Shown here: piece after piece, positions 3,893 through 30,024 of the stretch
Numbering within the stretch: position 1 is the first letter of the stretch
How the letters are laid out: every line of letters begins with the position of its first letter
DNA from: a virus
Taxonomy: Duplodnaviria; Caudoviricetes
IMG/VR virus record: IMGVR_UViG_3300037191_001756
Location: 1-63,166 of that record
Length of the DNA stretch: 63,166 nt
Strand: one strand, 5' to 3'
Notes under the pieces: model-generated
Told to the model about the DNA's origin: nothing
Database searches by the model: none
Seen by the model: only the letters and a program-made list of their open reading frames with translations
Translations under genes and position numbers: made by a program

Positions 3893-3893
3893 A

Positions 3894-12078: not shown

Positions 12079-15000
12079 TTAATCACAATTAATTAAAGTT
12101 TCTTGAGCTTTTCTGTTCTTAAACTCTTTAGTAATATCTATTACTTTCATCAAGTTTTTTTGAACTTTGTTATCTCCACTTAAGAATTTTTTTACACCAC
12201 TATTATGGATGTCCTCCAAAGATACATTAAAATCTTCAATGATTTTTTCTTTGGTTAATCCAGGATTTGTTTTGATGTAACTAGCTAAAGTTTGAACTTT
12301 ATCATAAGCTAAAGAAGATATATAAAAATATCTAGTTTCTCCATTGTGTTCTACAGGATATATTCCTGGTTTATTAAGCTTACTCCATTCAATTCCTCTA
12401 ATAGTCAATTTTTTATCACCGTCTATGACTTGCTGTACTGTAGTTTTATTCATTGGAAAAGTACCACCTTCAATACCTTTTGCTATTATAAAGTCTAAGT
12501 TAGATTCCTCTAAACTATCACTTTCAACAGCTCTTCCTTCATTTATATAATACTCAGTAGCAACAGGTTCCTCGAATATAATTTCTTCTTCTGCTCTAGC
12601 TTCATTAATCATAGCTTCAATTTCTGCATCATTTTCTATTTTATCAAAAGCAGTATTTTTTTCTTCAGGAAACCATTTAGCTTTTAATTGATTATCTACT
12701 GTAAATAGTTTTGAAGAAACTATAAATGTATTATAAGCAACAGTGTTTTTGTTTAACCTTTTTAATCCAATTTTAGTTAAAAGTTTTGCAATTAACTTTA
12801 AAAAATCTTCACCAAAAGACACTCCGAAAGACACTTTTGATCTTACATTATTCATTTCATCTCTAAAAGATTCTTTAGTAAACATTTCTGCTACAAATTC
12901 TTTTATATTGTAAAAAGGGTAGAATTTATCAATAGACTGCTGATAAGTTTTCTCTTTACTATTATCAGGAAATTTGTACTCAGATAAAGGCTTACCTTCT
13001 GCTCTTAAGTTTTTTCTTCTGTTATACTCAGCTCTAAACTGTTGTAATTCCACACCAAATGTAGCAGATTTACTATCAATTGCTTCATTAAATAACTTTA
13101 ACAATGTAACAGCTTCTATACTAGCATTTTTAGCTATAGTAATACCGTCTTCTATATCAAACTGAGTATTTAAATAATCAACACTCACAATATGAATACT
13201 TTCATGAAGTAAGACTCTTAGAAAATAATCTCTACTACGATTACTCATAGTTTTCATATTTGAGCTTATTTTTAAAGAAGCTTTACCAGCCACACTAGAT
13301 GGAGTAGCAAATCCTGCTGTTTGAAGATTAGGGTCAATTCCTACTTTAATACCTTTTAAGAACGGTGATATAGCTTCAATAAGGCTTCTAGTTGATTCAC
13401 TTACTTCATCATAGTTTTTAGCTGATTCTAAGTAATCAACCAAACCTCCACCATTTCTAATACTTTGCTCTAACTTTTTAACCTCTCCTATGTATTCTGA
13501 CTTCTCTTTAGGTTTTACTCTTACCACAGGAGGAACAACTGCTTTTGGAGCTAATTTAGGAACAGGTTTAACTTTATTTTTAGTATTACCTAAGATAGTT
13601 TCAGAGTAACCCACTGTGTTAGGAGAATATTCTGACATACCAAAAGTACCTAAAACAGGTATTTCAATATACTTCTCTTCTTGGAGCATAAATATTCTAT
13701 ACTTTTGTTTCGGAGCTTTGATACTTTTGTCATACATAGCTACAAAACCAGTACCTCCAAACAAACTTAAAATAGAATTTTTATCTTCTATAGAAAAACT
13801 TCCATCTTTATTTTTCTTTAAATCTTTAGGTTGAATTTTAGACAACAACTTAGGATTATTTTGAAAGAATTGAGTTTCAAAATTACTTAAATCATTTAAA
13901 AAATCTTTACTGTCCATAGTATTAAAATACTGAGAGAAACCTCTTTCTTTCAATAAGTTTACAGGAATATATTTAATAAATTGAATAGCTTCTTGAACAC
14001 CACCTTCTAATAAAGAATACTGAATCAAGTCATCAATCAACATATCCACTGTATAATCTTTACCATTTCTCTTTGGTAATACTATACTACTCTTTTGATT
14101 CTCTAGCATAGGTAAAGAAGCGTATAATAAAGAGTCATCAAAAGCTTCTCCAACTGCATTGTTAAATTCTAACAAAGATGGACCACCATTCTTACCTAAT
14201 TTGTAGGTAAATCTTCCTAGTAATTTGTTTTCTTTTAAAGCTGGTATATTTTTAAGATTAGTCAATAAATATTTAGCCAATGACTCATTAGAGTTTGTAT
14301 CTAAAAATAATTCTGCTCTTTTATTACTCGCATTCTCAGGAGAAATGTTGTTTTTACTATGAGAATTAAAATACTTTTTAATCTCTTTTAACAGTTTTAT
14401 TTTAAATTCTGTTACAGCAAAATCGCTTTCAGCATTTGTTTTACTTATTTTAAGTAATTTATTAAAGTATTGCTTAACTTCAGGTGAATCATATACAAAA
14501 AATCTTGACCATAGTTTCTGAGCTACAAAAGCACTTTCTACTATCATCTTAGACATTGGATTACTAGGTTTTATAAAAACACCATTAAACTCTCTGTACC
14601 CATCTTTTTTAAGTTGTCTTACTTTTTCTATACCATCATTTTTTTGTAAAGTTTCAATTTGACCAAATAAAGCTTCATATCCTTCTAAATAAACTCCTTC
14701 CATTGGTTTATATCTACCAACAATGTTTCCTAATCCATCATATTTATCAGAAGCTTCTAATCTAGATTTACCCAAACCTTTGTTTGCATTCAATTGAGAT
14801 TGTAATGTTCTTATAGAATCTGCTTTTTCATCAAGTTTTAGAAACATGTTCAACACTGCTACCTGAGTTTCATTCTCAGGGTTAGTAAGATTATTGTATA
14901 ATGACTCTCCTGATAAGTCAGGGACATTACCCACTTCTATACCATACTTTTCTCTTAAACCATCAATAAATACTTCTTTAGCATCTGCTGTGAAGTCCTT

Positions 15001-18000
15001 AGTTTGAGAACTTAATGCAGTTAATCCTGCTACATATTCTCTTATTATTGGTTGAGATAGAAATAGAAAAGGAATATTACCTTTCTTATAGTACTTGCCA
15101 CCTACTTTAATGGTATTTTTTTTATTGCTTTTAAATTCTTCTTCAGTAATTTCCCAAGCATCCATATCAATACCTAAACCTACTAATAACGCATCTACGT
15201 TAATAGTTTGAGAATTAATATTGACTCTACCTAATACTTGCTCTTTTACATTATCTGTAGCAATATTTTGTCTTTCTGCTAATACATCTGTGTTACTTCT
15301 TCTGATTTTATCTGCAACAGCTTTTGGAAGTACACTACTAGACAAAGTATCACTTCTACCTAAGAAACCATCACTAGTTGTATTACCAAAGACAATAGGG
15401 TCATCTTTTAATATTCTAGTATTTTCTTCTTTCGAGGAAACTTTAATTTTTATACTACCTAGTTTTTTTGAACTAGATTGTTGAACCATAGAGTGGAAAG
15501 TAACCATATTAGAGTAAACTCCAATTGCTAGTTTTCCTGAGCTACCTGCTTCCATTTTTCTTCTTTGATGAGAAGGAGAAGCTAATGTAAACATACTAGA
15601 CTTGTCAGCTATTAAGGTGTCAATCATTTCTGCTTGACTATTAGCAATATCCATTGATAATACCTTATTAATTCTTTTTTGAACTTCAGGTTCTGCATTA
15701 CCTAATACTTTACCATAAACTCTAACTATCTTATTTTCAAGAATTTTCTTTTTAAGTTTTCTTAATTTCTTTCTATCTTTTAATTTTAAGTTACCTGCCA
15801 ATTTATTATTAATCTCTTCTAAAGAATAGATTTCATCAATAGGTTTTATATTACCACTAGAATCTACTTCATGTCTTAAATGATAAGTAGTTTCTTTATC
15901 TACATCAAAATCTAATCCTTTTTGAACTGTAAGGTTCTTAGGGACTATCATAATATCTCCACTTTCAAAAGGTAAGATACCTACAATCTCTAATTGAGTC
16001 ATAGATTGATGAGAAGATGTTGGAACTCTAAAAGAAGTTATAGATAATAAATCTTTAGAAATACTATCTTTTAACATCATTTTACCACCTTTTTCCTCTA
16101 CGTAAAGAGGATTAGGAGTTCCATCAGCAAATATTAACTCAATTAATTTTCCATCGTTATCTCTGAACTTAGGACCAACCATTATTTGAGCTTTCTTAAG
16201 CCCTATTATTTTACCATTCTTATCTTTATAAAACTCAGCAGCTTTCAATTCTCCTTCCCAAGCTGAAGTATAAACAACATGGTCACTAGGTTTTTTTGAA
16301 GGATTATCTTTTAATTTAGTTTGAAAACCTGTATTTGAAGGTTGAATTTGAGGTTTCTTTTTGTTTAAAATCTCATCTTTTACTAAATCATCTGCTTCTT
16401 CAATTTTTTCTTGCTGTGGAGTAGTTTTAGTATTGGTCTCAGTCCCAAATATATTAAAAAATAAATCACTTTCAGATATACCATTTTCTGCTAACTTACC
16501 TGATATTGCATTATATAATAAATTAGGAATTTGGCTTTCAAAAGTAACTCCTTCAAAAGGATTTTTATCTTTTTGACCTTCTTTTAATAGTTTTTCAGCT
16601 TCTTTCCCAAAACTAATTCTATCTTTTAAACTTGATTCTTCAACAGAAAACAATTGTAGAGATTTAAATTCTGCTGCTAAAATTGCTTTATTGTTAGAAT
16701 TTTGAATCCAGTCAGGTAAAATACTTTCTATGAAAGATTCTAACTTATCACTAAAGTCAGTCTTAGTATCTTCAAGTTGAGTATCAACTTCTGTGTTTTG
16801 ATACTTTTGTTCTTGTTTTTTAACTCTAGGTAGTGATGGTTCAAGTTTTTCAACATTAGCTTTATCTAAAGTTTTATTTAATTTAGATTGTACTACTAAT
16901 TTATGACTTGCTCTTGAAATAGCTACATATAAAGATTGATTTTTAGCTTTACTAGTTCCACCATTAGTGCTACCTAATATATTATCCTCCATTACATAAG
17001 CATTTCTATAAGTAGACCCTTGTGCTTTATGAGAATTTATAGCATAGCCATATTGTAAATTTGGCAACTGAGCAGAAACTGTATAAGCTAATGCAGGATT
17101 TTTATCAATACCTAAGTTTTTATCTCCTTTAAACAACTTTTGTACTTCATTTTTAAGTCTATTTTTTTCTTCAGGAATAGGTATTTCAATAGTAATTTCC
17201 TTATTAGTCATATTATTGACCATAGTGACTCTTACTGCTTTATACTTTAAATTTGTAGAAGTAGTCCCTTTTCTTGTAGTTCTTGAAAAATTTTGAATCT
17301 TATCAAAAACTTCCCCAACTTCTGAAATAGTAAAATCAGTAGAGTTTTCAACTATTACTTCTTTATCTTTCATTAAAGTATCGTAGAACACCACTTGTTC
17401 TCCTTTTACTATTGAAAGAGCATCTTTACCATATAATATCTCTCTAGCTTTATCATTTAAGTTTTTAACTGATTGTGAACTAGTGTGATTTTCATTATTA
17501 AATGTAACAAGTTTAGTAGAAGTTGGATTCTCTTTAAAATCTTCTGCAAATTCTTCTAAAACTTTTGATTCATCTTTAAAGAATAAAACACCTTCATTAG
17601 TATCTTCATTAAATTTACTAGTTCTTTCCTCAATTACTCTTGTTTTAGGAGATTCAGATTCTACATTATTAGCTACAATATCAGACAAAGGTATAATTGG
17701 AGACAATTCATCTTGTCTCATTCTTTCTGATAAATTAGCTCCAACACTTTCTTCAAAAACTTTAGAATCATTGCTTTGTCCTACAGGAGGTAGTTGTGCA
17801 TTATCCCCCATAAAGATAATTTTAGCATCAGGATTCATGTCTTTTTTAATCTGTTTTAGCAACTCATCAGAAACCATAGATGCTTCATCTAATACAATAA
17901 GATTATATTGTTTTATAGCTAAAAATTCTCCATCTTGTCTTCTTGCATAAATATCTAACTTAAATTTACCTGTAGTTTCATCTAACTTAATACCTAATGA

Positions 18001-21000
18001 AGAAGCTAGAGTATTAGCTCTTACTCCAACAGATTCTGCTAAAACTGTTTTAGCTTTGTGAGTAGGAGCAAGAAATAAGGTATGTCTGTTATTAACTAAT
18101 TTTTTAATTATAGTAGTTTTACCTGTTCCTCCTCTTCCTGTTAATACAAAAATCTTTTCGTCAGAGTCTAAAAACTCTCTCATAGATTTTAAAGCAGCTT
18201 CTTGACCTTCATTAGCATAGACTCCTGGGAATAGTTGAGTTCTTCCTGTAGAATTATCAGGTAATGCATCACCTTCAACTTCTGTAGGTGCTTGTGAATT
18301 ATTTTTATAATTTTTAAACTTTTCTATGTCTTTTTCAGAACCTAATATATGAATTTGAGGTGAAGATTTAACAACGTATTCAGTACCTGTGTTTGTTTTC
18401 CCTTCTCTTTCCCCTATTACACCATCATTATTTTTAGTATTTTGTCCAATCTTATCAATATCAATGTAAGTATTATTAACAATTACCTGCTCTAACCCTC
18501 CTCTAACTTCTGTGGCTTTAGCAGGATTTTTAATATTAATAATTGCAGCAGTTACTGAACCTTTTGGAGTAGTAACTTCCTCTTCATTAGGAAATCCAAA
18601 TATATCTAATTGGTCTTCTGTATAACTAAGGTCAGTAGCTCCTTTTTTAATTGAAGTAAAATAAACACCCTTTCCAAATGTCCCTTTTTGAGAGGGCTTT
18701 AAATCTCCTTCAATTTTATTTTTACTACCATGGTAGACTACTTCTTTTACTTTACTGTCAGGGAATATACTACTTACATAGTCATTATACTCTTCTTCTG
18801 TACCTATAGAAGATAATTCAGAATTAGAATTGAATATTTCTGAAACACCTTTAATTAAAGCTGGTTTTTGAGTATCTTTTTTTACACCTTCATAAATTCC
18901 TGTATCATTATCAAAACCAAACTCTTCTAATAATCTTTGTTTTAAATAAGCATAAGTTTTAGGAGCTTTTTCTTTAAGCTTAGCTAAACCTGTACCTAAG
19001 CCATCTTTAGGAAATACTATAGGTCTTCCATCAGTTTTAATAGCTTGTATGTCCTTTTCAATAATCTTTATATTGGCTTCATACCAACTGTTCATAGAAC
19101 CATCATCAACATCAGACATAAATGCTTCTTCATTGTTATTAGGAGCAACTTTGGTAGAAATCCCAAAAGCATTCTCATTATTCCTAATCTGTGCTTGACC
19201 TCCTGTACCTTTTCTTTTATTGTTATCTCCAAATATGTATATTTTATCTGGATTAGCTTTTACATCTGAATTTGAATATCTTTTTACAACTTCTACATTA
19301 TCTTTTTGCTCTATTTCAGTATCTTTACCTTCAACTTTTGTAGGTGCTTGTTCTTGATTTCTATTTTTCTTTATAATATCACCTAGTGTTTCTTTTATTC
19401 CATACTTTTTATCTATGCTTTCAGTGTATTTAAAATCTATTGAATTTAAATTAAAACTATTTTGAGAAGGAGTTTCTTTTAAATCTTTTTTCATAGATTC
19501 AAGAAGATTTTTTGGTATAGCAGCTTCTATACTTTTCAACATAAACTCTTCTGACATCTTAGAAGAGCTTATAAAAGATTCCTCTCCGTTTTTACCTTCA
19601 TCTTTATAAAGAGTGTAAGAAAAAGGTTTATCTTTTTTTGGATTGTAAGACAACTTTGCCATCCAAGTACCTGATGCTCTCTTAAATAATATTTTAAAAT
19701 TACCACCTGTAGTATTAGGAATTATTTCTGTTATAGTACTTTCATTATTTTCAATATAATCTTTTAATTCAGTGTTTCTAAGACCTACAACAGAAGAGTT
19801 TTTTTCGTCAGCTATTGCTCTTAATATATCAAAGTCAGATTTCTGTACTTTTGGTGTTTCAATTTCAAGTCTTGAAAAACCCTTTTCTTGAGTATTATCA
19901 ACTGCACCTCTGTCAAAATAAGTATCATAATCAATCATCTTCATACCTGCTTCTGAAGCAGCTACATAACTAGAACCTGGAAGCTTAATTTTATTTATTC
20001 TATTATTTACAATAGCATTCATTAAACTTTCAAACTTATTACTATCAGGTGACAACCACAATGGAACTTCAAACTCTATTGATATTATATTTCCTTTACT
20101 ATCTTTTTCAGTTTTTAATTCTAACCCATCAATAGAGTTTTCTGAGAATCCTCTGTCTTTAGCTTCATTAATAAGTAATTCTTGTAAGTTAGTTAAAACT
20201 TTTTGATAGTCTTCTTTACTTTCAATTTCTCCACTTTTAGGAAGACCAATTTCTTCATACAAATCTTGAATTACATTATCTATGTACTCATTGTATAATC
20301 CATCAAATTCTTCTTTAATAGCAGGTCCATCAAATAATTTTGTCTTTAATTGAGAAAGACCATCTCCCATTAATAGTTTTAATACTTGAGAACCCTGTGA
20401 TACTTTGTCATCATTAGATTTTAATGATTTCATAGGTACATCCATTTGAATTCTAAAGTTATTTCTATCTAAAGAAACAGTAGCTTTATCAATCTCTAGT
20501 TGAGATACATCTCTTACTGTATTGTCAGGATTTAAAATTGACAAAGCATTACTAGTTGAACCTACTTTGTTTGCAGATTGGTAAGAAGCTCTTACTCCTT
20601 TATATTGAATCTTTCCATCAGGTCCTTTAGTATAAGCTCTTTTTTCTAGTAATCTTCTTACTTTATCTAATTCCTTACCTTTTGTTAATTGAGGTAATAG
20701 AGGGAAAGAAGAAGATTTTATGTACATAGTTCTTGCAACTCCATTAATAGTGTCATCTATCATTCCTGTATAAACAGGCTTAATAGGTTGCATCATTAAC
20801 TTAACTAAAGCATGACTTAGTAAATCTTTTTTATTTATTTCTCTACCTTCAGCTTCAGCTGCTACTTGATTTCTTATTTTTTCTTTTGATTTGTCATACA
20901 ATTTCTTGGTTACTCTACCTTGTCTGTATAGAGTATTAAGATGTTCTTCAGCAGTAGTGTACTCTTGAGCATCAGCTCCTTCAATCTCAAAATACTTGTC

Positions 21001-24000
21001 TAATTCAGGATAAGTTTCTTTTAATATGTTTTCAGCTTTAACTTTATCAGTAGAATTTTGTGCATTTTTATAATCGTCTACTAATTTCTTAGCAGCAGCT
21101 CTCTCTTCGGTGCCATACTCTAATTCTACTAGAAACTCTACATTTTCTGTAATTGCAACCCAATCATGTAACATAATTTGGTCATAAGAATCATCAACAC
21201 TATTGCTTAACTTAGAACCTGGAGCAATTAGTAAAGCTAATCTCTTATCCATGTTTCCATCTAAAGACTTAGATATCTCATCAAATACTCTAGGATTATT
21301 TACATGTTCTGCTCTTAGTACTCCTGGAGAATCAAAATACTTGTTGATATTTCCTTTAGCATATAAAGCAGGGTCACCTGAAAACAATTGAAATATATTA
21401 GCATTAGAAATTAAACTGTTAAAAGAGAAATCCATTGCAGCTATATGAATAGCTTTGTTAAAATCTGAACTTCTACTACTTAAATATAATTTATCTAATT
21501 TAGAAACATTTTTACCAGTTTTAGGGTCAACAGAGATATACTCATTTTCTCTAAAACTATCAAGAGTATTTTGGTACTCTTGGTCAACTAATCCTTCTAA
21601 AGACACTAAGGCTTTGCTTTTGAAATTGTCTTCAAAGAATTTTACATCTATATTACCTGCTTCATCTAAATCTAGTATCTGAGCAAATGTTTTACCATTA
21701 TGTTTTAATTTATTAATTTCAGGAAACATTAAAAATAAATAAGCTCCTGCATCATACCCTTTAATATCTGTTTTAGCTCCTTTAGATTTAAAGTCAACCA
21801 TTCTTTGAACTTCAGATAGAACTAAGGTTCTGTAAGCCATTTCTATCATCTCTTTAGATGCTATAGCTTTGTTATCTTTAACTTGTACTATTTTATCAGT
21901 TATATTAAATATACCTGTTTTCATAATCATCATCTGAGTTTTATCAGACATATTAGGAAAAAACATAGTAGCCATCCTCATAGGAAGATTCTTAAAAGGA
22001 CTTTTTATACTACCTTGCTTAGTGTCTTGAAAAGCACCTAATTTAGTATAATCATGGTCAATAGCTGATAAATCTGTTACACCTGCATCTCCAAATAAGT
22101 CAGCATTAAGTTGTTTTAATGCTGTTAAACCTAGATGATTTACTTCAAACTTATCTCTTAAAGGAGAGTCTTTCTCTCTTAACATTTCAAGAATATAAGA
22201 AGTATTGTTAAATGCTTTTTCATGCAACATATTTCTATACTTATCTCCATAATCTCCTTTATGTGTCAATTTCTGAGCTGTATCAGTAGCCACTGTAGTA
22301 GCTGTAAACCCAAACACTGATTTACCTGCATCTCTGAATACACTTGGAGATGGATAAGTGTTGTACTTTCTTTCTAAAGAAATTAACCCCTTCAATATGT
22401 TGGACATATCAGAGAAAGGATGATTTGCATCATCTATGCTTTCAAAAGCAGTGTAATCTCTTTTTTCTAACCCTTGTAGCCAATTAGTTAAATACCCAAA
22501 TACTCCTGTAGTGTTCCCACTAACTCTGAACATACTCTCAAAAGTCACTTTCTTAGAGCCATCTTCGCTATCAAAAAACCAACCTTTGTTAATTAAATGA
22601 CTTAATGATTCAGGATTAAGTATTAGACCAAACCCATTAAGAAACTCTACTAACTCTGCAATTTTAATTCCTTGTGGAGTAAAACCTTCTTTATCAAAAA
22701 TAAATCCTCCACTATCTTTAACTTGTTTAGCAAATTTTTCTCCTAAATCTTGAAGTCTTTTTGCTTTTTCTTTATTAATAGATGTGTTTCCTTCTTTATT
22801 TAACTCTACTAATGCAGAATTTTCAAACTCTGATAAAAAGTGTTTTCTTATTACTTTAATAATGTCACTAGAATTTGTGTCAAATATTTTAACATCATAC
22901 TCATTACCTTGCCCTTTTTGATAAGAAACAAATTGCATTTTTAAAGTATGTTTAGTCATCTCATATCCAAACATATTTTGAACACCTTCATCACTTTCAG
23001 ATAACTTGTCATGAACTTGTTTCATAGTTGGGTCAGACTCCCCTTTCTCTTTTAACCTTTCTAATAAGACATCTACACTTGATAATAAACCATCAGGGTG
23101 ATTTAAAGTACTTAAAGTCATGTCATATACTTCATCAAAAGATTTGTATTTAATAACTCCTAAAAATCCTTTCTTAGTTTTATTTCCAATTCTATCTTGG
23201 ATACCAAACATGAATCTTTTTAATTTAGCAGAAGACTTTGATTTTGGATTCATTTCTACAGCTCCTTTATCAAATACTTTATCTTCCCCTACATCATCTG
23301 TGTCAAGGACTTCTTCTTGGTTGGTTGTAGATATATCTACAAACTTGTTAAACTTAGCTTCAGCTCTCTCTAATAGCTCCTCTTTGTTATTTCTAACAAT
23401 ATCAATAATATTCTTTAACTCATTTATTTTAGTAGTTAAAGATTCTGAGTCTGCTACTTCGGATAACCTGCTTTCTAAAGCTTCAATTTCATTTTCTTTA
23501 TTGTTAATAACTTCATCGAAATCTTCAGCTACATTTTCGATTAGAAGTTTTTTTGTAACAGCTTCTTCATCAGTTATATATTCAGCAAATCCATGAACTA
23601 AATAATCTACTAAATCTGAAGTCTGTTCTATGGATAATCCTGTTACAGCATTGTCATTTTCTATTACTGTAGTTGAAGTCATAGAGTTATATAAACTGTC
23701 TATAAGCTCTTCTACATTGTCAATATCTGTTTCTTCTATAACTTCTTCTCTAAGAGCAGAAGCTATTGTAGTAGTGGTCATAACTTCTTCTTCTACACTT
23801 AAGTTCTTACCCTCTACTTCTTTTACTACAGTCTCTTCTGTCTGCTCTATAACAACTATTGGGGAAACAATTTCAGGTTCTACAATAGTAGGCTGATTTA
23901 AATTCTTTTCTACTGTATCTTTTTTCTCTTTCTTAACCTGAGCAACAGCTCCTTCTTTGTCAATTTGAGATTGATTCTTTGATATTTTAAAACTTATCTT

Positions 24001-27000
24001 TGGCTGTACAAAATTAATTGTTTCACCTCCTAATTGAAAAGAATTATAACTAGAAGCCATAGATGCTCCTAATACATCTTTCATTGTACCTTCTCTTTTA
24101 AAAGCAGGACCTGATTCACCTTGTGTAATCATTGGAGAATCCATGTTCTCAAACAAAGTTCTCGAAGGATTAAATTTCATATCAGCAAGTAAAGCTTTAA
24201 AATCTTCTGAACCAATAAAAGTATTCTTATCATAGTAATAACCTACTCTTTTGTCTGTGTCAGGATATTTTTTATTTGGACCTATTTTTCTAGTCTGTGC
24301 AACATATTTTCCTGCTTTGACTACTCTGTAAACTACGAAAAATCCACCATCTTGAGAAAAAATAATATCTTCTCCATTTTTTAAAACTTTAGGTCCATAC
24401 AACTTAGTGGCTGCATCATTAATAGCATTAATTCTTCTTGCTCTGTATCTTCTTTTCTCAGCAGGAGTACCAACTTTATCAGTTTTAGAACCTTTTATAT
24501 TATTTTCGTTTATTACAACACGAGACCCTCCTAACTTAACAAAGTTAAGCAAGAAGTCATTAAAAGTCTTTGGATTTGTATTTAATTCTGCTATACCTTG
24601 AGGAAACCAGCCTTCTGTAAGCTTTGCTAATTTTTTCCCCACAGCATTCTTGCTTTCTTTAGAAGCTGTAGAAGTAAATTGAGCCATCAATCCTGAAATC
24701 ATGTTTAAAAGACTAACATTATCTCCAAGTGTTTGTGGTAATAAGTACTGAGCAATATATCTTCCATCAGGTTTTTCTAATAACTCCATATAAGCTCCTG
24801 GAGGAAAAGGTTTGTTATGAGTATCAACTTCTTCTTTATTGATGACCTTATTTCCAATTACAAAATTTCCAGAACCATCTACAAATGATACAACAGAGTT
24901 AGGTTTTGTAGACAAAGGTCTGATACCTTGAGGATTATCTTCTGTCACAACAACTTGTGGAGCAGTTCCTATTGTCTTTCCTGAAACAGTAATAGACAAA
25001 GAACCATTGCCAGATACAGCTTTTCTTAAAGAGTTTATTTCTTTTTTACCTTTTTCAATTTGAGCTTGTACATCTTTACTATCTTCTCCTTGTACATTCC
25101 ACTCATTAAACCAATCTTGCTCTCTAATCATAAAGACAGGGTCTCCATTCTTATTGTAAGCCATCATAGGTACTCTAGCATACCATTCAGCAGAACCTTC
25201 TACTATGTTGTTTCTTGTAACATAGTTTTGAAAAGTTTCACTTTCTTTAGGTATCCCATTTTCATCAAATTTGTTTATAGAGGTACCAAGAGCATTAGGA
25301 GAAATTTGAATGTGCAATTCATCTCCTTCTTTAACTCCATTTTTTGTCAACAATTCTTGATGTTTAATATCATCTTCTGAATTTAACTCATTAGATGTAT
25401 AGACAAATCCCCATTCTCCTGATTCAAATTGTACTAATTTATGTGGTATAGATAAGTAAACAGCATTAAAAGATATTTCTTCTAATCCAGTATCTATAGT
25501 CACTACTTGCTTTTTACCATTAGGCAAAGCTTTTACTACTTCATTACTTTTTTCAATTTTTTTATCATTGTCGGAGTTATACTCTGCTATCTCTCTATCA
25601 CTAAGTATTTGAGTAGATAAAGTAATTAAGTTATTATTAATTGAGTTTAAACTTCCTCCATTAAATATGTCATCATAAACTTCTACATAATCCATAGAAG
25701 GGTAATTATTTGCTTCCCATCCTATTTTCAAAGCCTCAAACATAGAATCAGCAAACTCTTCATTATTTAATTCAATAATTATCTCTATAAACTCTTGAAA
25801 ATCAGGAGCATACCCTATTTTTCTTTTAGTAGAACTGTAAAATCTTTTTACAGTTTGTTTTAATTTATTTTCAGCTTCTGAAGGTAAATTTTCTTTTAAT
25901 CCTAATGGTAACTCATCTTTAGAATTTAATTCTCCATAAGATATTTCAGCTTTTTCTACTAATTCCCAAACATCTTTTCCTTCTGCATTTCTTACTTTTC
26001 TAAGCTTACCTCTTTTACGTGTTACAATTTTAGTTGCTTTAGAGTCGTAATTACCTATAGTGTTTGAAACAGGCTCTACTCTATTTCCTGGGTCATTTAA
26101 AGTTGCAGTAAAAGTCGTAGGTGAATTATGAAATTCAAACTCTGCGGTATCTCCATCAACAAATAGCTTCCAAATACTAGCTCCTGATTTAGGAGAGCTT
26201 TGTCCATTTTTAACTGTAAACTCACCTTTTCCATTAGGAGCAGGTAAAAACATAGGAGTTCCTTTAGGAGTATCCATTGTTTTAGTTTCAGAAGTAGATT
26301 GTACAGCTTGACCTGGTAATTGAAATCTCTCAATACTTTGTGTATCAACTTTTTCTACAGAAGACTCTACTTTTGTAGCTTGATTTTCAGCGTTCTTTAA
26401 TTCAATAGCAAGATCACTTTTTTGTTTATTAATAGCCTCACGTTCATTAGAAAGTTCTTTTACATTATCTCTACGTGTTTGTTTTTCAAGTGATAACTCT
26501 TCAGCTTTTTCGCTTGTAAATTCACCATCAACAAGTATGATTTTAGATCCTTGATTAAACTCTTTTGCACCACCTACTACAACATCGATAGAGTTAAGTA
26601 TATCGTTTTTAATCTGTTCGTAATTGTCAGTATCTTTATTTAAACCTAAGATAGCAAGTATACTATCAATAACGTTATTTATAAAACTTTTATCTTCTTT
26701 TTTATTTAAAGTATTAACTACCCATTTTCTAAATTCAGAATCGCTAATAAAAGCTGCTTGAAATTCTACTAAATTAAGCTTTCTTAAACTAGTTTTCTTT
26801 TCACTATTAGTCATGTTTATTTTCAAGTCCTCTAATAGTCTATTAAAACTAACGAGCTCTTTAAGAACTTTACTATTAACTCTATAACCTGCTTCATCTT
26901 TTGCTTCTGCCATAGCAGTTTCTATCATCGGTGCTATAGCAGCTTTAGCAATTTCATAACCAAGTGAACGTTTGCTTGAAAAAGGATTTCTAATTGAATT

Positions 27001-30000
27001 TCCATCAGAATCAAGAGTATCTGATTCTGGCGATAACATTACATCTGCTAATTTCTCTAAAAAAGAATCCCTTTCTTTAAATACCATCCATAACTTTTTA
27101 TCTACAGTCATGTTATTAGGTAATGCTTCAATTACAGAATCAGGTATGTTTTGTTCTTTTAAGTATCCTTTAAAATGTTTGTCAAACTCTGCTGTTTCTT
27201 CATCAGTACTTTCGTCAACATCTTCTTCTACACGTTCATTATTATTTCTTTTTTTAATATTAGCTAATTCAATAATTTCCTGTTCAATTATTTTTTCAAT
27301 AGCTTCTTGTTCATCAATCTGTTCTTGAATAAGTTCTTTAAGTTCGTTGTTAAGAGCTATTGTTTTTTCATTTATCTCTTCACGTTTTTTTTCAATAGTT
27401 GTAATTTGAGCTTCTTCTAAAGCAGTTACTTTTTTAGGCTTAGGAGCATCAACTACTTTTAACCCTGATTTAGGTTCTACAACTACAGGAACTACTTTAG
27501 CTTCTTTCTCAGAAGTTAATTCTTCTGCTATACTTTTTAATTCGTTAATTAAATTAAGATTTTCTTCTTCTAGTTCTACTATGTTTTCTCTAGAATTAGA
27601 CATCTCTTCTTGTATAACTATTTCTGGAGAAAATTCTTGCTCTTGAACCTCATATTGAGGTTCAGCTCCAAATTCTTGAGTACCTATTTCAGCAGGTTCT
27701 TCAGGAGTTTTTAAAGGAACTCCTTTTTCGGAAGAAGGAATTTCTGCTGCTTTTTCTTCTTCTTTCTTAATAGCTTTAGCTTTTGCCTTTGAAGCTTTAT
27801 TTTTATTTTCTTCAGTATCAGGAAGCACTTTAGCAGCAGCTTCTACTTCTTTTACAGAAATAGCTTTTTCAATAGCTTCTTTAGCTTTTTTTACTTTATG
27901 TTCTTTTCTAAACCCTTCTTTAGACCAATCTAATAACTGAGTTTCTGCTTGGTCTAATACTTTTTCAGCATGTATTTCTCCTATCTTAAGACCTAAGTGA
28001 GTTGCTTTGTCAATTAAATTCATAGACCTACGTTCTTTAGCTCCATTAGTCCAATCTGGGTCAGCTTTAAGTTTCTCCATTTCATTTAAAACAGAAGTTC
28101 TACCAGCGATATTAGCATTGGTTTGACCTTTATCAGAAGTAATAATCATTGCTGTATTCTGATTCATCAACTCATAATACTCTTTACCTATATCAGATAA
28201 AGCAGCATAATGTTTGTCAACATTTTCAAAGTCTTTTAAGTCTTCTTTAATACTTAAACCTTCTTTTTTTAAATCCCTTACTACACTTTCAGCATGAGCA
28301 GCATTCATAGCTGAGTTGACATCTCCTTTAAACTTATTGTGATATTTACTGTAGTCAGCTTTAATTTCTTTAGCTTCTTCTAATAATGAATCAACATTAT
28401 CAGCCATAAAATCTAAATCAACTTGACTTTCAATTCCTACTACATCTCTTAAGTAATCTAAATTATTATCTTCAATTGCTTTTTGAATCTCTTCTAAATT
28501 ATCAATGTGCAGATTAAATCCTTGCTCATCATTATTTAGTTGGTCATATTGTAGAGCTTCAAAAACACTAGCTTTACTCATTTCTAACTTATGTTCATAC
28601 AAGGCTTTCTTATTCTTAGGGTCAATCTTAGACATAGCTTGTAAGTCCTCATAATTTCTAGCACCCACAGAAGATAGAAATTCTGTGTACATGGCATCAT
28701 TTCTTTTAGTTGCTCTTCTTTCTGTAAAATTTAAAGAGAAAGCTGAACCCATAGCTTTAAAACCAACTCCACCTAAAGCTCCACCAATCATAGAATCTCT
28801 TAACTCATGTCCTTTAGTTAAATGGTCAAGATAAGTAGTTTCTTTAAAAATTTTATCTTTTTGTAATGTTCTAAACTCTGCATACTTAGTCATAGATGTT
28901 TCTAACCCCTCTTCAAAAGCTTCAGATACAACTTGTACTCCATAGTTTATTCCTCCTTTTGCATACTTGTTAGTAACATTAGGAAAAGTTCTTTCTGCAA
29001 AAGACTCAATTAAAGAACCAAATCCTGTCTTAGCTTGAGCTTTACCTCCTGTAAAAGGATTATATTTACCTGCTACAGCACTATATTGAAATCCATTTAA
29101 TAACATCAATGGAATAGCTTGTAATTTAAAATTCAAAGCAGAGGCATCAGCAGCTTTTTGCTTTGAAGTATCATCATCGTATCCTAATTTTTTATACTGA
29201 TTAAAAGTAGCTTCTCCTGCACCAAGAGAATTCATAAATGCTTGTTTAAATCCTTGTGCAGCTCCAAAACCTCTTTGGAATTTAGAAGTATTTGCCATAG
29301 CAGACTTAACTCCAAACTTAAGCTTTTTTGCAAGAGATAATCCTTTTTGTACACTTCTCGCTGTTTTAGCAGCACCAGCAAGATTACCTGTTCCTCCTGT
29401 TATAAGACCTAATGCAGCTTGTTCTGCAAATGTAGCTGCAATTAATCCTGTAGAATATCCAAAGTTTTGTAATTGATTACCCCAATAAGCTCCACTCCAC
29501 ACATCATCACCATCTTGATAGATAGCGTATTTTTCTCCAGCAGTTTTTTGAAAAGCTTTAGCTTGGCGACCAAACCAATTTTCATATTCATAAGTAGCAT
29601 CTTTACTTGCCATAGCTGCCATACCTACAGGGTCATTAGAACCTAATAAGTCTAAAACTCCTGCCTTAAAGTTTAATTTAAATCCTGCAATAGTATTTAA
29701 AAATACCTCTCCTTTACCTTGGTTAAGAGCAGCTACTCTCTCTGTGTCTTTCATATCACCAAAAGTGTTGATATTCTTTCTAGCTTGTTCATACCTAGGG
29801 TCTAAGTATTTCTCTCCTTGAAGATTATCAGCATTAGCTGTAGTATATCTAGTATTTCTTGGGTCAGGACTATTTATTTTTCTTTTTCTATCATTCTCTG
29901 CATTACTTCTACCTATGTCAGCAAGTGTTTCTTTAGAAGCATAAGTATATCCTTCTAATTGCTTGTCTACTTTTTTAGGAGGTTCATTACCTACATTCTT

Positions 30001-30024
30001 TGACAAATCTATTGGTTCAGCCAT
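12079..30024 (-). CDS. giant virion RNA polymerase polyprotein (5981 aa) with fused accessory domains
   Basis: Two-barrel RNAP motifs ADAQEY, QPIKP, YIKSS, SANKVG, FRIQ, KLPG, FRVPT and catalytic GLDFDVDK; also SF1 helicase, ART-like, macro-like, HExxH and ASCH-like segments. Confidence 0.92.
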   Translation of the reverse strand: MAEPIDLSKNVGNEPPKKVDKQLEGYTYASKETLADIGRSNAENDRKRKINSPDPRNTRYTTANADNLQGEKYLDPRYEQARKNINTFGDMKDTERVAALNQGKGEVFLNTIAGFKLNFKAGVLDLLGSNDPVGMAAMASKDATYEYENWFGRQAKAFQKTAGEKYAIYQDGDDVWSGAYWGNQLQNFGYSTGLIAATFAEQAALGLITGGTGNLAGAAKTARSVQKGLSLAKKLKFGVKSAMANTSKFQRGFGAAQGFKQAFMNSLGAGEATFNQYKKLGYDDDTSKQKAADASALNFKLQAIPLMLLNGFQYSAVAGKYNPFTGGKAQAKTGFGSLIESFAERTFPNVTNKYAKGGINYGVQVVSEAFEEGLETSMTKYAEFRTLQKDKIFKETTYLDHLTKGHELRDSMIGGALGGVGFKAMGSAFSLNFTERRATKRNDAMYTEFLSSVGARNYEDLQAMSKIDPKNKKALYEHKLEMSKASVFEALQYDQLNNDEQGFNLHIDNLEEIQKAIEDNNLDYLRDVVGIESQVDLDFMADNVDSLLEEAKEIKADYSKYHNKFKGDVNSAMNAAHAESVVRDLKKEGLSIKEDLKDFENVDKHYAALSDIGKEYYELMNQNTAMIITSDKGQTNANIAGRTSVLNEMEKLKADPDWTNGAKERRSMNLIDKATHLGLKIGEIHAEKVLDQAETQLLDWSKEGFRKEHKVKKAKEAIEKAISVKEVEAAAKVLPDTEENKNKASKAKAKAIKKEEEKAAEIPSSEKGVPLKTPEEPAEIGTQEFGAEPQYEVQEQEFSPEIVIQEEMSNSRENIVELEEENLNLINELKSIAEELTSEKEAKVVPVVVEPKSGLKVVDAPKPKKVTALEEAQITTIEKKREEINEKTIALNNELKELIQEQIDEQEAIEKIIEQEIIELANIKKRNNNERVEEDVDESTDEETAEFDKHFKGYLKEQNIPDSVIEALPNNMTVDKKLWMVFKERDSFLEKLADVMLSPESDTLDSDGNSIRNPFSSKRSLGYEIAKAAIAPMIETAMAEAKDEAGYRVNSKVLKELVSFNRLLEDLKINMTNSEKKTSLRKLNLVEFQAAFISDSEFRKWVVNTLNKKEDKSFINNVIDSILAILGLNKDTDNYEQIKNDILNSIDVVVGGAKEFNQGSKIILVDGEFTSEKAEELSLEKQTRRDNVKELSNEREAINKQKSDLAIELKNAENQATKVESSVEKVDTQSIERFQLPGQAVQSTSETKTMDTPKGTPMFLPAPNGKGEFTVKNGQSSPKSGASIWKLFVDGDTAEFEFHNSPTTFTATLNDPGNRVEPVSNTIGNYDSKATKIVTRKRGKLRKVRNAEGKDVWELVEKAEISYGELNSKDELPLGLKENLPSEAENKLKQTVKRFYSSTKRKIGYAPDFQEFIEIIIELNNEEFADSMFEALKIGWEANNYPSMDYVEVYDDIFNGGSLNSINNNLITLSTQILSDREIAEYNSDNDKKIEKSNEVVKALPNGKKQVVTIDTGLEEISFNAVYLSIPHKLVQFESGEWGFVYTSNELNSEDDIKHQELLTKNGVKEGDELHIQISPNALGTSINKFDENGIPKESETFQNYVTRNNIVEGSAEWYARVPMMAYNKNGDPVFMIREQDWFNEWNVQGEDSKDVQAQIEKGKKEINSLRKAVSGNGSLSITVSGKTIGTAPQVVVTEDNPQGIRPLSTKPNSVVSFVDGSGNFVIGNKVINKEEVDTHNKPFPPGAYMELLEKPDGRYIAQYLLPQTLGDNVSLLNMISGLMAQFTSTASKESKNAVGKKLAKLTEGWFPQGIAELNTNPKTFNDFLLNFVKLGGSRVVINENNIKGSKTDKVGTPAEKRRYRARRINAINDAATKLYGPKVLKNGEDIIFSQDGGFFVVYRVVKAGKYVAQTRKIGPNKKYPDTDKRVGYYYDKNTFIGSEDFKALLADMKFNPSRTLFENMDSPMITQGESGPAFKREGTMKDVLGASMASSYNSFQLGGETINFVQPKISFKISKNQSQIDKEGAVAQVKKEKKDTVEKNLNQPTIVEPEIVSPIVVIEQTEETVVKEVEGKNLSVEEEVMTTTTIASALREEVIEETDIDNVEELIDSLYNSMTSTTVIENDNAVTGLSIEQTSDLVDYLVHGFAEYITDEEAVTKKLLIENVAEDFDEVINNKENEIEALESRLSEVADSESLTTKINELKNIIDIVRNNKEELLERAEAKFNKFVDISTTNQEEVLDTDDVGEDKVFDKGAVEMNPKSKSSAKLKRFMFGIQDRIGNKTKKGFLGVIKYKSFDEVYDMTLSTLNHPDGLLSSVDVLLERLKEKGESDPTMKQVHDKLSESDEGVQNMFGYEMTKHTLKMQFVSYQKGQGNEYDVKIFDTNSSDIIKVIRKHFLSEFENSALVELNKEGNTSINKEKAKRLQDLGEKFAKQVKDSGGFIFDKEGFTPQGIKIAELVEFLNGFGLILNPESLSHLINKGWFFDSEDGSKKVTFESMFRVSGNTTGVFGYLTNWLQGLEKRDYTAFESIDDANHPFSDMSNILKGLISLERKYNTYPSPSVFRDAGKSVFGFTATTVATDTAQKLTHKGDYGDKYRNMLHEKAFNNTSYILEMLREKDSPLRDKFEVNHLGLTALKQLNADLFGDAGVTDLSAIDHDYTKLGAFQDTKQGSIKSPFKNLPMRMATMFFPNMSDKTQMMIMKTGIFNITDKIVQVKDNKAIASKEMIEMAYRTLVLSEVQRMVDFKSKGAKTDIKGYDAGAYLFLMFPEINKLKHNGKTFAQILDLDEAGNIDVKFFEDNFKSKALVSLEGLVDQEYQNTLDSFRENEYISVDPKTGKNVSKLDKLYLSSRSSDFNKAIHIAAMDFSFNSLISNANIFQLFSGDPALYAKGNINKYFDSPGVLRAEHVNNPRVFDEISKSLDGNMDKRLALLIAPGSKLSNSVDDSYDQIMLHDWVAITENVEFLVELEYGTEERAAAKKLVDDYKNAQNSTDKVKAENILKETYPELDKYFEIEGADAQEYTTAEEHLNTLYRQGRVTKKLYDKSKEKIRNQVAAEAEGREINKKDLLSHALVKLMMQPIKPVYTGMIDDTINGVARTMYIKSSSFPLLPQLTKGKELDKVRRLLEKRAYTKGPDGKIQYKGVRASYQSANKVGSTSNALSILNPDNTVRDVSQLEIDKATVSLDRNNFRIQMDVPMKSLKSNDDKVSQGSQVLKLLMGDGLSQLKTKLFDGPAIKEEFDGLYNEYIDNVIQDLYEEIGLPKSGEIESKEDYQKVLTNLQELLINEAKDRGFSENSIDGLELKTEKDSKGNIISIEFEVPLWLSPDSNKFESLMNAIVNNRINKIKLPGSSYVAASEAGMKMIDYDTYFDRGAVDNTQEKGFSRLEIETPKVQKSDFDILRAIADEKNSSVVGLRNTELKDYIENNESTITEIIPNTTGGNFKILFKRASGTWMAKLSYNPKKDKPFSYTLYKDEGKNGEESFISSSKMSEEFMLKSIEAAIPKNLLESMKKDLKETPSQNSFNLNSIDFKYTESIDKKYGIKETLGDIIKKNRNQEQAPTKVEGKDTEIEQKDNVEVVKRYSNSDVKANPDKIYIFGDNNKRKGTGGQAQIRNNENAFGISTKVAPNNNEEAFMSDVDDGSMNSWYEANIKIIEKDIQAIKTDGRPIVFPKDGLGTGLAKLKEKAPKTYAYLKQRLLEEFGFDNDTGIYEGVKKDTQKPALIKGVSEIFNSNSELSSIGTEEEYNDYVSSIFPDSKVKEVVYHGSKNKIEGDLKPSQKGTFGKGVYFTSIKKGATDLSYTEDQLDIFGFPNEEEVTTPKGSVTAAIINIKNPAKATEVRGGLEQVIVNNTYIDIDKIGQNTKNNDGVIGEREGKTNTGTEYVVKSSPQIHILGSEKDIEKFKNYKNNSQAPTEVEGDALPDNSTGRTQLFPGVYANEGQEAALKSMREFLDSDEKIFVLTGRGGTGKTTIIKKLVNNRHTLFLAPTHKAKTVLAESVGVRANTLASSLGIKLDETTGKFKLDIYARRQDGEFLAIKQYNLIVLDEASMVSDELLKQIKKDMNPDAKIIFMGDNAQLPPVGQSNDSKVFEESVGANLSERMRQDELSPIIPLSDIVANNVESESPKTRVIEERTSKFNEDTNEGVLFFKDESKVLEEFAEDFKENPTSTKLVTFNNENHTSSQSVKNLNDKAREILYGKDALSIVKGEQVVFYDTLMKDKEVIVENSTDFTISEVGEVFDKIQNFSRTTRKGTTSTNLKYKAVRVTMVNNMTNKEITIEIPIPEEKNRLKNEVQKLFKGDKNLGIDKNPALAYTVSAQLPNLQYGYAINSHKAQGSTYRNAYVMEDNILGSTNGGTSKAKNQSLYVAISRASHKLVVQSKLNKTLDKANVEKLEPSLPRVKKQEQKYQNTEVDTQLEDTKTDFSDKLESFIESILPDWIQNSNNKAILAAEFKSLQLFSVEESSLKDRISFGKEAEKLLKEGQKDKNPFEGVTFESQIPNLLYNAISGKLAENGISESDLFFNIFGTETNTKTTPQQEKIEEADDLVKDEILNKKKPQIQPSNTGFQTKLKDNPSKKPSDHVVYTSAWEGELKAAEFYKDKNGKIIGLKKAQIMVGPKFRDNDGKLIELIFADGTPNPLYVEEKGGKMMLKDSISKDLLSITSFRVPTSSHQSMTQLEIVGILPFESGDIMIVPKNLTVQKGLDFDVDKETTYHLRHEVDSSGNIKPIDEIYSLEEINNKLAGNLKLKDRKKLRKLKKKILENKIVRVYGKVLGNAEPEVQKRINKVLSMDIANSQAEMIDTLIADKSSMFTLASPSHQRRKMEAGSSGKLAIGVYSNMVTFHSMVQQSSSKKLGSIKIKVSSKEENTRILKDDPIVFGNTTSDGFLGRSDTLSSSVLPKAVADKIRRSNTDVLAERQNIATDNVKEQVLGRVNINSQTINVDALLVGLGIDMDAWEITEEEFKSNKKNTIKVGGKYYKKGNIPFLFLSQPIIREYVAGLTALSSQTKDFTADAKEVFIDGLREKYGIEVGNVPDLSGESLYNNLTNPENETQVAVLNMFLKLDEKADSIRTLQSQLNANKGLGKSRLEASDKYDGLGNIVGRYKPMEGVYLEGYEALFGQIETLQKNDGIEKVRQLKKDGYREFNGVFIKPSNPMSKMIVESAFVAQKLWSRFFVYDSPEVKQYFNKLLKISKTNAESDFAVTEFKIKLLKEIKKYFNSHSKNNISPENASNKRAELFLDTNSNESLAKYLLTNLKNIPALKENKLLGRFTYKLGKNGGPSLLEFNNAVGEAFDDSLLYASLPMLENQKSSIVLPKRNGKDYTVDMLIDDLIQYSLLEGGVQEAIQFIKYIPVNLLKERGFSQYFNTMDSKDFLNDLSNFETQFFQNNPKLLSKIQPKDLKKNKDGSFSIEDKNSILSLFGGTGFVAMYDKSIKAPKQKYRIFMLQEEKYIEIPVLGTFGMSEYSPNTVGYSETILGNTKNKVKPVPKLAPKAVVPPVVRVKPKEKSEYIGEVKKLEQSIRNGGGLVDYLESAKNYDEVSESTRSLIEAISPFLKGIKVGIDPNLQTAGFATPSSVAGKASLKISSNMKTMSNRSRDYFLRVLLHESIHIVSVDYLNTQFDIEDGITIAKNASIEAVTLLKLFNEAIDSKSATFGVELQQFRAEYNRRKNLRAEGKPLSEYKFPDNSKEKTYQQSIDKFYPFYNIKEFVAEMFTKESFRDEMNNVRSKVSFGVSFGEDFLKLIAKLLTKIGLKRLNKNTVAYNTFIVSSKLFTVDNQLKAKWFPEEKNTAFDKIENDAEIEAMINEARAEEEIIFEEPVATEYYINEGRAVESDSLEESNLDFIIAKGIEGGTFPMNKTTVQQVIDGDKKLTIRGIEWSKLNKPGIYPVEHNGETRYFYISSLAYDKVQTLASYIKTNPGLTKEKIIEDFNVSLEDIHNSGVKKFLSGDNKVQKNLMKVIDITKEFKNRKAQETLINCD
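12090..12470 (-). other. C-terminal ASCH/PUA-like domain in the polyprotein
   Basis: FPM...QQVIDGDKKLTIRG resembles the ASCH I-x-x-G-x-K-x-x-T-x-R motif. Confidence 0.4.
12720..13400 (-). other. zincin metallopeptidase domain in the polyprotein
   Basis: VLLHESIH (13192-13206) with downstream NIKEFVAE. Confidence 0.75.
15898..15912 (-). other. RNAP catalytic motif DFDVD
   Basis: GLDFDVDK, preceded by FRVPT...GDIMIVP. Confidence 0.9.
16890..18230 (-). other. SF1B (Dda/RecD-like) helicase domain in the polyprotein
   Basis: GRGGTGKTT, LAPTHKA, DEASM, GDNAQLPPV, MRQ, YAINSHKAQGSTY, YVAISRA. Confidence 0.92.
18271..18295. repeat. 25-bp direct repeat, copy A (ACCTTCAACTTCTGTAGGTGCTTGT)
   Basis: 24/25 identical to 19327..19351; encodes QAPTEVEG. 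Confidence 0.85.
18310..18860 (-). other. ADP-ribosyltransferase-like domain (H-Y-E type) in the polyprotein
   Basis: VVYHGS...FGKGVYFTS...DGVI...TEYVV...QIH pattern, preceded by SELSSIGTEEEYNDYVSSIFPDSKVK. Confidence 0.7.
18900..19300 (-). other. macro-like phage domain in the polyprotein
   Basis: NPDKIYIFGDN..GTGGQAQIR..NAFGISTK..IVFPKDGLGTGLA, a phage family (A1S_2505-like) with macro-type glycine loops. Confidence 0.6.
19327..19351. repeat. 25-bp direct repeat, copy B (ACCTTCAACTTTTGTAGGTGCTTGT)
   Basis: Encodes QAPTKVEG; offset from copy A is 1056 bp (352 codons, in frame). Confidence 0.85.

Follow-up and report, generated by a model that had tools for sequence, protein, structure and literature searches.

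The IMG/VR virus record IMGVR_UViG_3300037191_001756, a linear sequence of 63,166 bases (68% complete according to CheckV) that was analysed over its whole length and is referred to here as the window, carries on its minus strand a single gene of 5981 codons for a giant RNA polymerase (RNAP), whose core, related to gp66 of phage phi14:2, is interrupted by 1159 residues that include several folded domains. These residues fall into two modules, M1 with a DUF7831 and an ADP-ribosyltransferase (ART) domain and M2 with an SF1B helicase, and both modules are missing from a sister form of the gene found in three sequencing runs. The architecture, the insertion site, the identities of the domains and the two allelic forms are established by the comparisons reported below. 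Beyond these, we consider it rather probable that the gene specifies the virion RNAP polyprotein of an FpV4-like marine phage, in which one loop holds two passenger modules that are delivered together with the polymerase. The parts of such a protein are known; what is new is their placement inside the catalytic half and their presence or absence at the level of strains. A literature search returned no description of enzyme domains inside the core of a crAss-type RNAP, in agreement with the original prediction, made from the letters of the window alone, that this gene is the best candidate for an undescribed system in the window; supplementary domain tables, which lay outside that search, could bear on the point.

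It is worth stressing that, once a cell is infected, crAss-type virion RNAPs are the phage activity to appear first, and that their handling of double-stranded DNA is at issue. An insert-bearing polymerase and its natural cassette-free sister allele constitute a matched pair for comparing template opening and the action of the ART. In addition, the gene indicates that a two-barrel RNAP core can accommodate folded enzymes totalling over 1100 residues in a single loop, and such insertion-tolerant polymerase sites are useful both for understanding these enzymes and for engineering them.

The frame in question is the longest among the 33 open reading frames (ORFs) of at least 150 residues, and, since the chance of 5981 consecutive open codons at 30% G+C is only about 0.92^5981 by our own estimate, it is not random. 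It forms part of a minus-strand block of virion genes in which terminase, portal and major head protein are followed by large structural proteins. The profile of phrog_16227, annotated as 'virion structural protein' (4401 positions), matches the polyprotein in three pieces, with about 1450 protein residues and only about 310 profile positions lying between the second and the third. In base composition the insert shows no anomaly, its G+C content being 0.285–0.301 as compared with 0.287–0.313 in the surroundings. The original prediction had described one stop-free frame with RNAP motifs on both sides of an insert, and this is borne out over all 5981 codons, with KLPGSSYVAAS at residue 3347, VVYTSAWEGELK at 4583, FRVPT at 4665 and DFDVD at 4705.

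For the alignment to phi14:2 gp66, a profile seeded with gp66 was iterated over 174 sequences (the relatives described below plus FpV4), leaving out this protein and P0003 (numbers of this form are handles for compared proteins), and its 2180 positions correspond to gp66 numbering. Residues 2061–3371 align with gp66 21–1253 (905 bits), residues 4560–4735 with gp66 1239–1391 (190 bits) and residues 4734–5521 with gp66 1452–2149 (530 bits), both flanks running contiguously in the coordinates of the model. Since both match one and the same gp66 profile, the flanks form, in terms of sequence similarity, a single gp66-type two-barrel RNAP core that is interrupted, as had been predicted. A direct phmmer search of the polyprotein against the PDB sequences returned helicases only and no RNAP, and the link to gp66 thus required the iterated profile. 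The catalytic motif of crAss-type RNAPs reads DFDxD, its fourth residue being I or V; in gp66, the two barrels are separated by the Connector (residues 1095–1238), and the bridge helix and the trigger loop occupy residues 1529–1559 and 1598–1636, respectively (10.1101/2020.03.07.982082). The motif found here carries V at its fourth position, and the break falls about 15 residues past the Connector and about 108 residues ahead of DFDVD, that is, at the N-terminal edge of the catalytic barrel. In the giant protein of FpV4 the two flanks abut, residues 2044–3363 corresponding to FpV4 1672–2981 and residues 4545–5841 to FpV4 2954–4277, so that the near-contiguity expected in a homologue is indeed found. 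The segment immediately before the break may resemble the first strand of the beta-prime barrel. The PDB code of the gp66 structure is 6VR4.

Modules and domains of the insert

According to the contig joints described below, the insert amounts to 1159 residues, arranged as two in-frame modules (M1, residues 3381–3910; M2, residues 3930–4559) around a retained linker of 19 residues. A multi-enzyme insert of about 1200 residues had been predicted; enzymes do lie inside the core, and it is the size and the division into two modules around a linker that had to be corrected. The order of the domains is a domain of no assigned function, DUF7831, ART-like, SF1B helicase and a second unassigned domain (Table 1). 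Four entries of the list given originally are retained in this order, and the fifth, a macro-like domain, turned out to be DUF7831 without a significant match to a solved structure.

Table 1. Positions of the features of the polyprotein gene in the window
Feature	Position	Strand	Remark
Whole virion RNAP polyprotein gene, 5981 residues	12079..30024	-	stop codon 12079-12081
Residues 1-2060, N-terminal region ahead of the gp66-like core	23845..30024	-	partial homology to the FpV4 giant protein
RNAP core part 1, residues 2061-3380	19885..23844	-	gp66 21-1253: first barrel and Connector (gp66 1095-1238)
M1 first domain, residues 3381-3558, no assigned function	19351..19884	-	stand-alone relatives P0227 (208 residues) and P0210 (292 residues)
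25-nucleotide direct repeat, copy 1, encodes QAPTKVEG	19327..19351	.	pairs with 18271-18295
M1 DUF7831 domain, residues 3579-3696	18937..19290	-	PF25176 in Pfam, scoring 110.2 bits (cut-off 27)
M1 PARP-like (H-Y-E) ART domain, about residues 3727-3909	18298..18846	-	ART-PolyVal matches of relatives, alignment, model
25-nucleotide direct repeat, copy 2, encodes QAPTEVEG, the start of the native linker	18271..18295	.	pairs with 19327-19351
19-residue native linker, residues 3911-3929	18238..18294	-	retained in the short allele; recognisable ahead of the P0003 helicase
M2 SF1B (Dda/RecD2-type) helicase, residues 3938-4378	16891..18213	-	all motifs present
M2 C-terminal unassigned domain and linker, about residues 4400-4559	16348..16827	-	56%-identical copy after the core in P0009
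RNAP core part 2, residues 4560-5521	13462..16347	-	gp66 1239-2149: catalytic barrel, bridge helix and trigger loop ranges
Catalytic DFDVD, residues 4705-4709	15898..15912	-	aligned to gp66 DFDID 1361-1365
C-terminal region, residues 5522-5981, with HExxH motif	12082..13461	-	candidate zincin-like peptidase

The first domain of M1 gave no match in the Atlas search, and its relatives P0210 and P0227 are without a Pfam family. The DUF7831 domain is modelled with high confidence (predicted local distance difference test score, pLDDT, 91.5). None of its 171 listed matches in the PDB reaches E<=0.001; in BFVD, 9 of 123 matches do, six of them being named DUF7831 (from three giant viruses, a Caulobacter phage, a Rhizobium phage and the gut crAss-like phage cr131_1) and the other three comprising an 'NTF2 domain-containing' and an uncharacterized protein from two further gut crAss-like phages and one unnamed entry. 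The Atlas search with this domain retrieved DUF7831 clusters only, and the literature search found no paper naming DUF7831. The macro-like label was rejected, because no Macro family matches at E<=0.1 and the best macro structure, 5hih, stands at rank 14 (E 1.4, template modelling (TM) score 0.37).

The ART domain is recognized by way of its relatives P0007, P0279 and P0250, which exceed the Pfam cut-off for ART-PolyVal (PF18760); when the compared proteins were searched iteratively, these three matched the domain with E-values of 1e-53 to 1e-66. An alignment of the domain (A3) contains VYHG, GVYF and TEYVV, which we take to be the H-Y-E triad of PARP motifs. Of 342 PDB matches to the model of this domain (pLDDT 77.9), 12 reach E<=0.001, and 11 of these 12 are tankyrase/PARP catalytic domains. 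The twelfth is chain 9k3a_B of a cyanophage pre-ejectosome (rank 10, E 7e-4, root-mean-square deviation 16.7), which, as a lead only, hints that other phages, too, may have ART-like domains attached to virion proteins that are ejected. Several compared proteins, namely P0250, P0281, P0318, P0278 and P0259, contain two to four tandem ART-like copies each.

The helicase of M2 is matched by AAA_30 (89.6 bits, cut-off 27) and UvrD_C_2 (30.7 bits, cut-off 27.4) and also corresponds to the Dda-like phrog_325 and to RecD2 in NCBIfam. Its Walker A, DE, GDxxQLPPV and HKAQG motifs and the region of motif VI align with the PDB structures 9kwf_B and 3e1s, 3upu being likewise matched, and scans of the protein with PADLOC and NCBIfam returned helicase-type matches only.

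At the module boundaries the pLDDT drops below 50 (model residues equal to 3560–3565 and 3912–3935), and the modules are predicted to be connected by flexible linkers. The two 25-nucleotide direct repeats are 24/25 identical, in frame and spaced 1056 nucleotides (352 codons) apart, thereby bracketing DUF7831 and the ART domain; as repeat family D2, with copies extended to 45 nucleotides, they are 80% alike. The QAPT(K/E)VEG linker motif occurs in 0 of the 317 other proteins compared, and, judged by its sequence, the 25-nucleotide repeat looks like a recombination scar at the linker. An origin of the insert as an intein or intron was considered and rejected: no Hint, LAGLIDADG, HNH or GIY-YIG family matches at E<=0.1, and the modules start with KGFS and QLFP and finish with NNS and KPQ, which are not the residues of an intein or intron splice junction.

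The cassette-free allele and the loop in relatives

Nine sequencing runs contain part of the window, and four of them, from one marine study, hold 39–70% of its words. In Logan contigs of the runs X1–X3, all from one study, position 16348 is joined to 18238, with two other letters in between, and 18294 is joined to 19885; a 242-nucleotide contig in X2 fits 30 + 2 + 57 + 153 letters, placing both joints on one contig. The stretches skipped are 1889 − 2 = 1887 nucleotides (629 codons) and 1590 nucleotides (530 codons), both in frame and 1159 codons in total, and the short form retains residues 1–3380, the 19-residue linker and everything from residue 4560 onward. Contigs of this joined form are about 99% identical to the flanks of the window (7/906 and 11/1016 letters differ), and contigs of the insert differ from the window at 0–3 letters. 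The depth of the former is 7.95–25.9 as compared with about 0–10 for the latter, a rough measure with one figure per contig, which hints no more than that the short form is not rare. As a form lacking exactly 1159 codons is present in three runs, the cassette looks dispensable and polymorphic; given that both modules are absent from a sister strain whose flanks are about 99% identical, it is accessory and not essential.

Further joints (16381 to 17533, 15914 to 18102 and 16035 to 16203) were set aside, their short sides measuring 21–26 letters and joints of this kind often being foreign. The first of them, seen at high depth in X2 and X3, skips 1151 nucleotides within M2, has a shorter side of 21 letters and could be another allele or foreign sequence. 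Run X6, which belongs to another study (share 0.10), yielded pieces of 30–257 letters only and gives no evidence on habitat or on absence. A search of metagenome_contigs and viral_contigs with a 24-nucleotide flank word found no other contig, and an assembly of the short allele was not recovered there. Protein-guided contig scans returned relatives of 28–42% identity and the scaffold L009, an 8.9-kb sequence from an ocean survey whose positions 1–1764 encode residues 4829–5416 at 100% identity and which stops short of the insertion site; by this match the strain is present in a second assembly, which is uninformative on the junction.

Relatives were gathered in two ways. Those sharing domains of the insert comprise 56 giant proteins (932 candidates scored) and are biased by that choice, and those sharing the C-side core number 160, the best 120 of which are listed (1052 candidates scored), and were chosen on core similarity only. 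By profile search, a gp66-like core is present in 171 of 176 sequences (175 proteins and FpV4). In-core additions exceeding 80 residues are confined to 5 of these 171 proteins, all at gp66 ~1253–1277: 1188 residues in the present protein (profile alignment), 868 in P0003, 161 in P0103 (residues 2814–2976, about 20 residues downstream, with a NADAR domain at 51 bits against a cut-off of 35), 150 in P0059 (residues 2747–2898, no family) and 126 in P0109 (residues 2800–2927, no family). The segment of P0109 shows glycine-rich motifs by eye. The remaining in-core insertions are all at most 149 residues long. When measured between gp66 1238 and 1257, the loop exceeds that of gp66 by 4 residues in the median, the difference lying between −8 and +42 in 167 of 171 proteins and the four outliers being +149, +198, +878 and +1212.

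The same domains can also be located with respect to the core in the relatives. The helicase lies C-terminal of it in 33 cases, N-terminal in 0 and inside in 1 (P0003), 5 further cases being in coreless proteins; the corresponding figures for DUF7831 are 35, 5, 0 and 1, and the ART domain follows the core in 7 cases, precedes it in 1 and lies inside it in 0, with one case straddling the N edge (P0007) and 0 in coreless proteins. Among the 120 listed relatives chosen by their core, 13 carry the helicase and 107 are without a fused one. From these alignments, the picture is that of a variable loop that took up foreign domains several times, with terminal fusion being the rule.

In P0003, a metagenomic protein of 4387 residues, the 868-residue insert sits at the same residue and opens with a recognisable version of the same linker followed by the helicase, which implies that the insertion of the helicase is older than the split of the two lineages. 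Its flanks are both 50% identical to those of the present protein, its helicase is 54% identical and its C-side core 63% in a separate listing, so that the divergence of the helicase parallels that of the core. P0003 differs in being devoid of DUF7831 and ART and in having a different segment of about 360 residues behind the helicase. The closest cultured relative (~27–31% identical) is the 'putative structural protein' ALN97145 of FpV4 (4287 residues; Fipvunavirus), a member of a group of Flavobacterium psychrophilum phages, which has the same layout and gene order but, unlike the present protein, contiguous flanks; no helicase match was found in the giant genes of the FpV records. FpV4 is filed under Caudoviricetes/Fipvunavirus, outside Crassvirales, and yet its giant protein has a full gp66-type RNAP core. 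With phi14:2 gp66 itself, the protein shares a single-chain two-barrel RNAP (matched over gp66 21–2149), the DFDxD motif and a gene in the virion block, whereas gp66 is a stand-alone protein of 2180 residues with an unbroken core, as opposed to a polyprotein of 5981 residues with 1159 residues of enzymes at gp66 ~1253.

Proposed passenger delivery and its alternatives

The reading that we favour starts from the variable loop at the break (gp66 ~1253), which would have acquired M1 and M2 in frame. Because relatives bear the same domains at the ends of their polyproteins, the passengers may have been shifted from these ends into the permissive loop. Given the flexible linkers that are predicted, the modules would probably hang off the surface of the polymerase and enter the host alongside it, ahead of any phage gene expression. 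Polymerases of the gp66 type are packaged in the virion and begin early transcription (10.1101/2020.03.07.982082), from which such a delivery before gene expression is a reasonable inference, and the RNAP proteins of Crassvirus are described as capsid cargo that is ejected partly unfolded (PMC10172136). Upon arrival, targets in the host or its defences would be acted on by the ART and perhaps also by DUF7831. The helicase would most likely open or clear double-stranded DNA on behalf of the polymerase, which is of a type with an in vitro preference for single-stranded templates and would remain active despite the insert. The helicase may serve the polymerase because single-stranded DNA is a good template and double-stranded DNA a poor one for gp66, a virion protein, and because QDE-1, its eukaryotic relative, requires a helicase and RPA (10.1101/2020.03.07.982082).

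Several known systems resemble parts of this arrangement. Large domains are tolerated in core loops of bacterial RNAPs as lineage-specific insertions, e.g. SI3 of beta-prime. To our knowledge, the known insertions of this kind are non-enzymatic structural modules fixed in whole phyla; the present insert differs in that it carries enzymes and varies between strains. Judging by its sequence alone, the polyprotein combines an ART, an SF1 helicase and possibly a zincin, which is reminiscent of polyvalent proteins, where ART, helicase and zincin-like domains occur in one virion-delivered chain around a virion polymerase (PMC5512222). The same source classes N4-like virion RNAPs fused to ART as polyvalent proteins; the fusions to ART or MPTase that it describes are end-to-end and involve a T7-like single-subunit RNAP, unlike the placement inside a two-barrel core seen here (PMC5512222). 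Thermus phage P23-45 likewise has a two-barrel virion RNAP within a giant multifunctional virion protein, but in the available account this is a terminal fusion to the tape measure, and the core is described without an insertion (10.1101/2022.12.01.518664).

A number of observations weigh against the favoured reading. Passenger domains are terminal in most relatives, which makes the loop an exception and not the normal slot of the family; the original idea of the loop as an expansion slot is retained in that the loop was used more than once and with different contents (5/171), but not as a general rule. A comparison of inserts across relatives, also suggested originally, showed the helicase at the same site in one independent relative, P0003, and M1 at this site only here. 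The evidence for the alleles consists of Logan contigs (X1, X2, X3 and X6), not raw reads. Among the contigs listed, the insert/flank junctions of the window itself are overlapped by only 28–30 letters, when the bridging rule is 31, so that mapping across 16300–19950 with these contigs delivered the short form but fell just short at the window's own junctions; an overlap of 28–30 letters is what contig ends of a 31-mer graph look like. The presence of M1 and M2 on one molecule rests on the IMG/VR assembly. Judging by the contig depths, the form without the cassette may be no less abundant than the long one, as would also be expected if the insert were costly. Finally, the ART domain matches no Pfam ART family at its cut-off, the only family at E<=0.1 being DUF3990 (E 0.016, 15.3 bits against 32.2), and its TM-scores in Foldseek are low (0.35–0.39).

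Two alternatives deny a functional insert. The assembly could be a chimera, in which the insert, or M1 alone, stems from elsewhere (e.g. the C-terminus of a related polyprotein) and was mis-joined via shared linker words. The 57-nucleotide linker and the 25-nucleotide repeat are indeed shared nodes, loose contig ends lie near 18300–18335, and the short overlaps at the junctions and the usual C-terminal position of these domains in relatives fit the idea as well. Even so, a chimera is very unlikely, if less firmly so for M1, since both junctions are codon-exact and leave 5981 codons open, P0003, from a separate assembly, has its helicase at the same residue, and the flanks appear to belong to a minor-strain haplotype: they differ from the high-depth contigs by 7/906 and 11/1016 letters, and the insert differs from its own contigs by 0–3, so that both look minor-strain. 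Alternatively, the insertion (at least of M1) might cripple the polymerase, with the allele persisting only via co-infection with the cassette-free strain, as the rough difference in depth between insert (~0–10) and joined form (7.95–25.9) in three runs would allow. We give this hardly any credence, as all 5981 codons are free of stops and frameshifts, polymerase, helicase and ART have kept their catalytic motifs intact, and the helicase insert has been kept across 37–50% protein divergence from P0003.

Two other alternatives accept the insert and differ in what it does. The polyprotein might be cut at its linkers, either by the C-terminal HExxH domain or by a neighbouring protease, which would free the enzymes and leave the RNAP to reassemble from beta-like and beta-prime-like halves, as in split-RNAP phages; this is compatible with the passenger idea, although the mechanism is a different one. 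Some crAss-like fused polyproteins are probably cleaved, with a zincin-like protease encoded nearby (10.1101/2020.03.07.982082), and crAss001 has three separate RNAP-associated proteins (PMC10172136). In the present protein, an HExxH lies at residues 5607–5611, and the linkers are of low confidence and probably flexible, but no cleavage-site motif was identified in the polyprotein, the SprT-like match of the HExxH region remains below its cut-off (E 0.096), and a cut at this site would detach from the catalytic barrel the segment that directly follows the Connector. On balance cleavage is unlikely, though worth keeping in mind. A role of the entire insert in transcription, with the helicase as a template-opening or DNA-pulling motor and M1 regulating the polymerase or modifying phage components, seems to us less plausible still. 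It would agree with the need of gp66 for single-stranded or denatured DNA in vitro and with the dependence of QDE-1 on helicase and RPA (10.1101/2020.03.07.982082), with the helicase being the most frequently fused passenger in the clade (13/120 listed) and with its retention at this site since the split from P0003. The short allele and the 107/120 listed relatives without a fused helicase nevertheless indicate that it is not required, and ART-PolyVal domains are described as conflict effectors (PMC5512222).

The favoured reading of loop-borne passengers can be extended, in a speculative form that we also deem unlikely as a whole, to the proposal that crAss-type virion RNAPs have in the fused SF1B helicase the template-opening partner that had been missing, and that the loop is a natural docking point for in-frame enzyme cassettes swapped between strains via recombination at conserved linkers. 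The helicase, whether in the loop or, as in about one tenth of the relatives, C-terminal, would then couple ATP-driven unwinding of the entering genome to a polymerase that on its own would read single-stranded DNA only.

Remaining regions of the polyprotein and its neighbours

Outside core and insert, the polyprotein has long terminal regions. The N-terminal one (residues 1–2060) has zero Pfam or NCBIfam matches, and its residues 1374–1701 align with 1090–1453 of the FpV4 protein. In the C-terminal region, downstream of the RNAP core, the HExxH motif reads HESIH (residues 5607–5611; 13192–13206), and a Pfam SprT-like match below the cut-off (E 0.096) is a lead only; the region is possibly a zincin-like peptidase and, on the basis of this motif, may be the counterpart of the zincin-like peptidase that phi14:2 encodes by a separate gene. 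Searches with phi14:2 gp65 and gp67 (phmmer and jackhmmer) against the compared proteins and both neighbouring ORFs gave zero matches, and for this reason the N- and C-terminal regions are not equated with gp67 and gp65. P0103 also gives a weak SprT-like match. The ORFs flanking the gene, 7400–12058 (minus strand, 1552 residues) and 30037–32340 (minus strand, 767 residues), match no PHROG family at E<=1e-5, and FpV4 carries a syntenic ORF of 1596 residues downstream of its giant gene.

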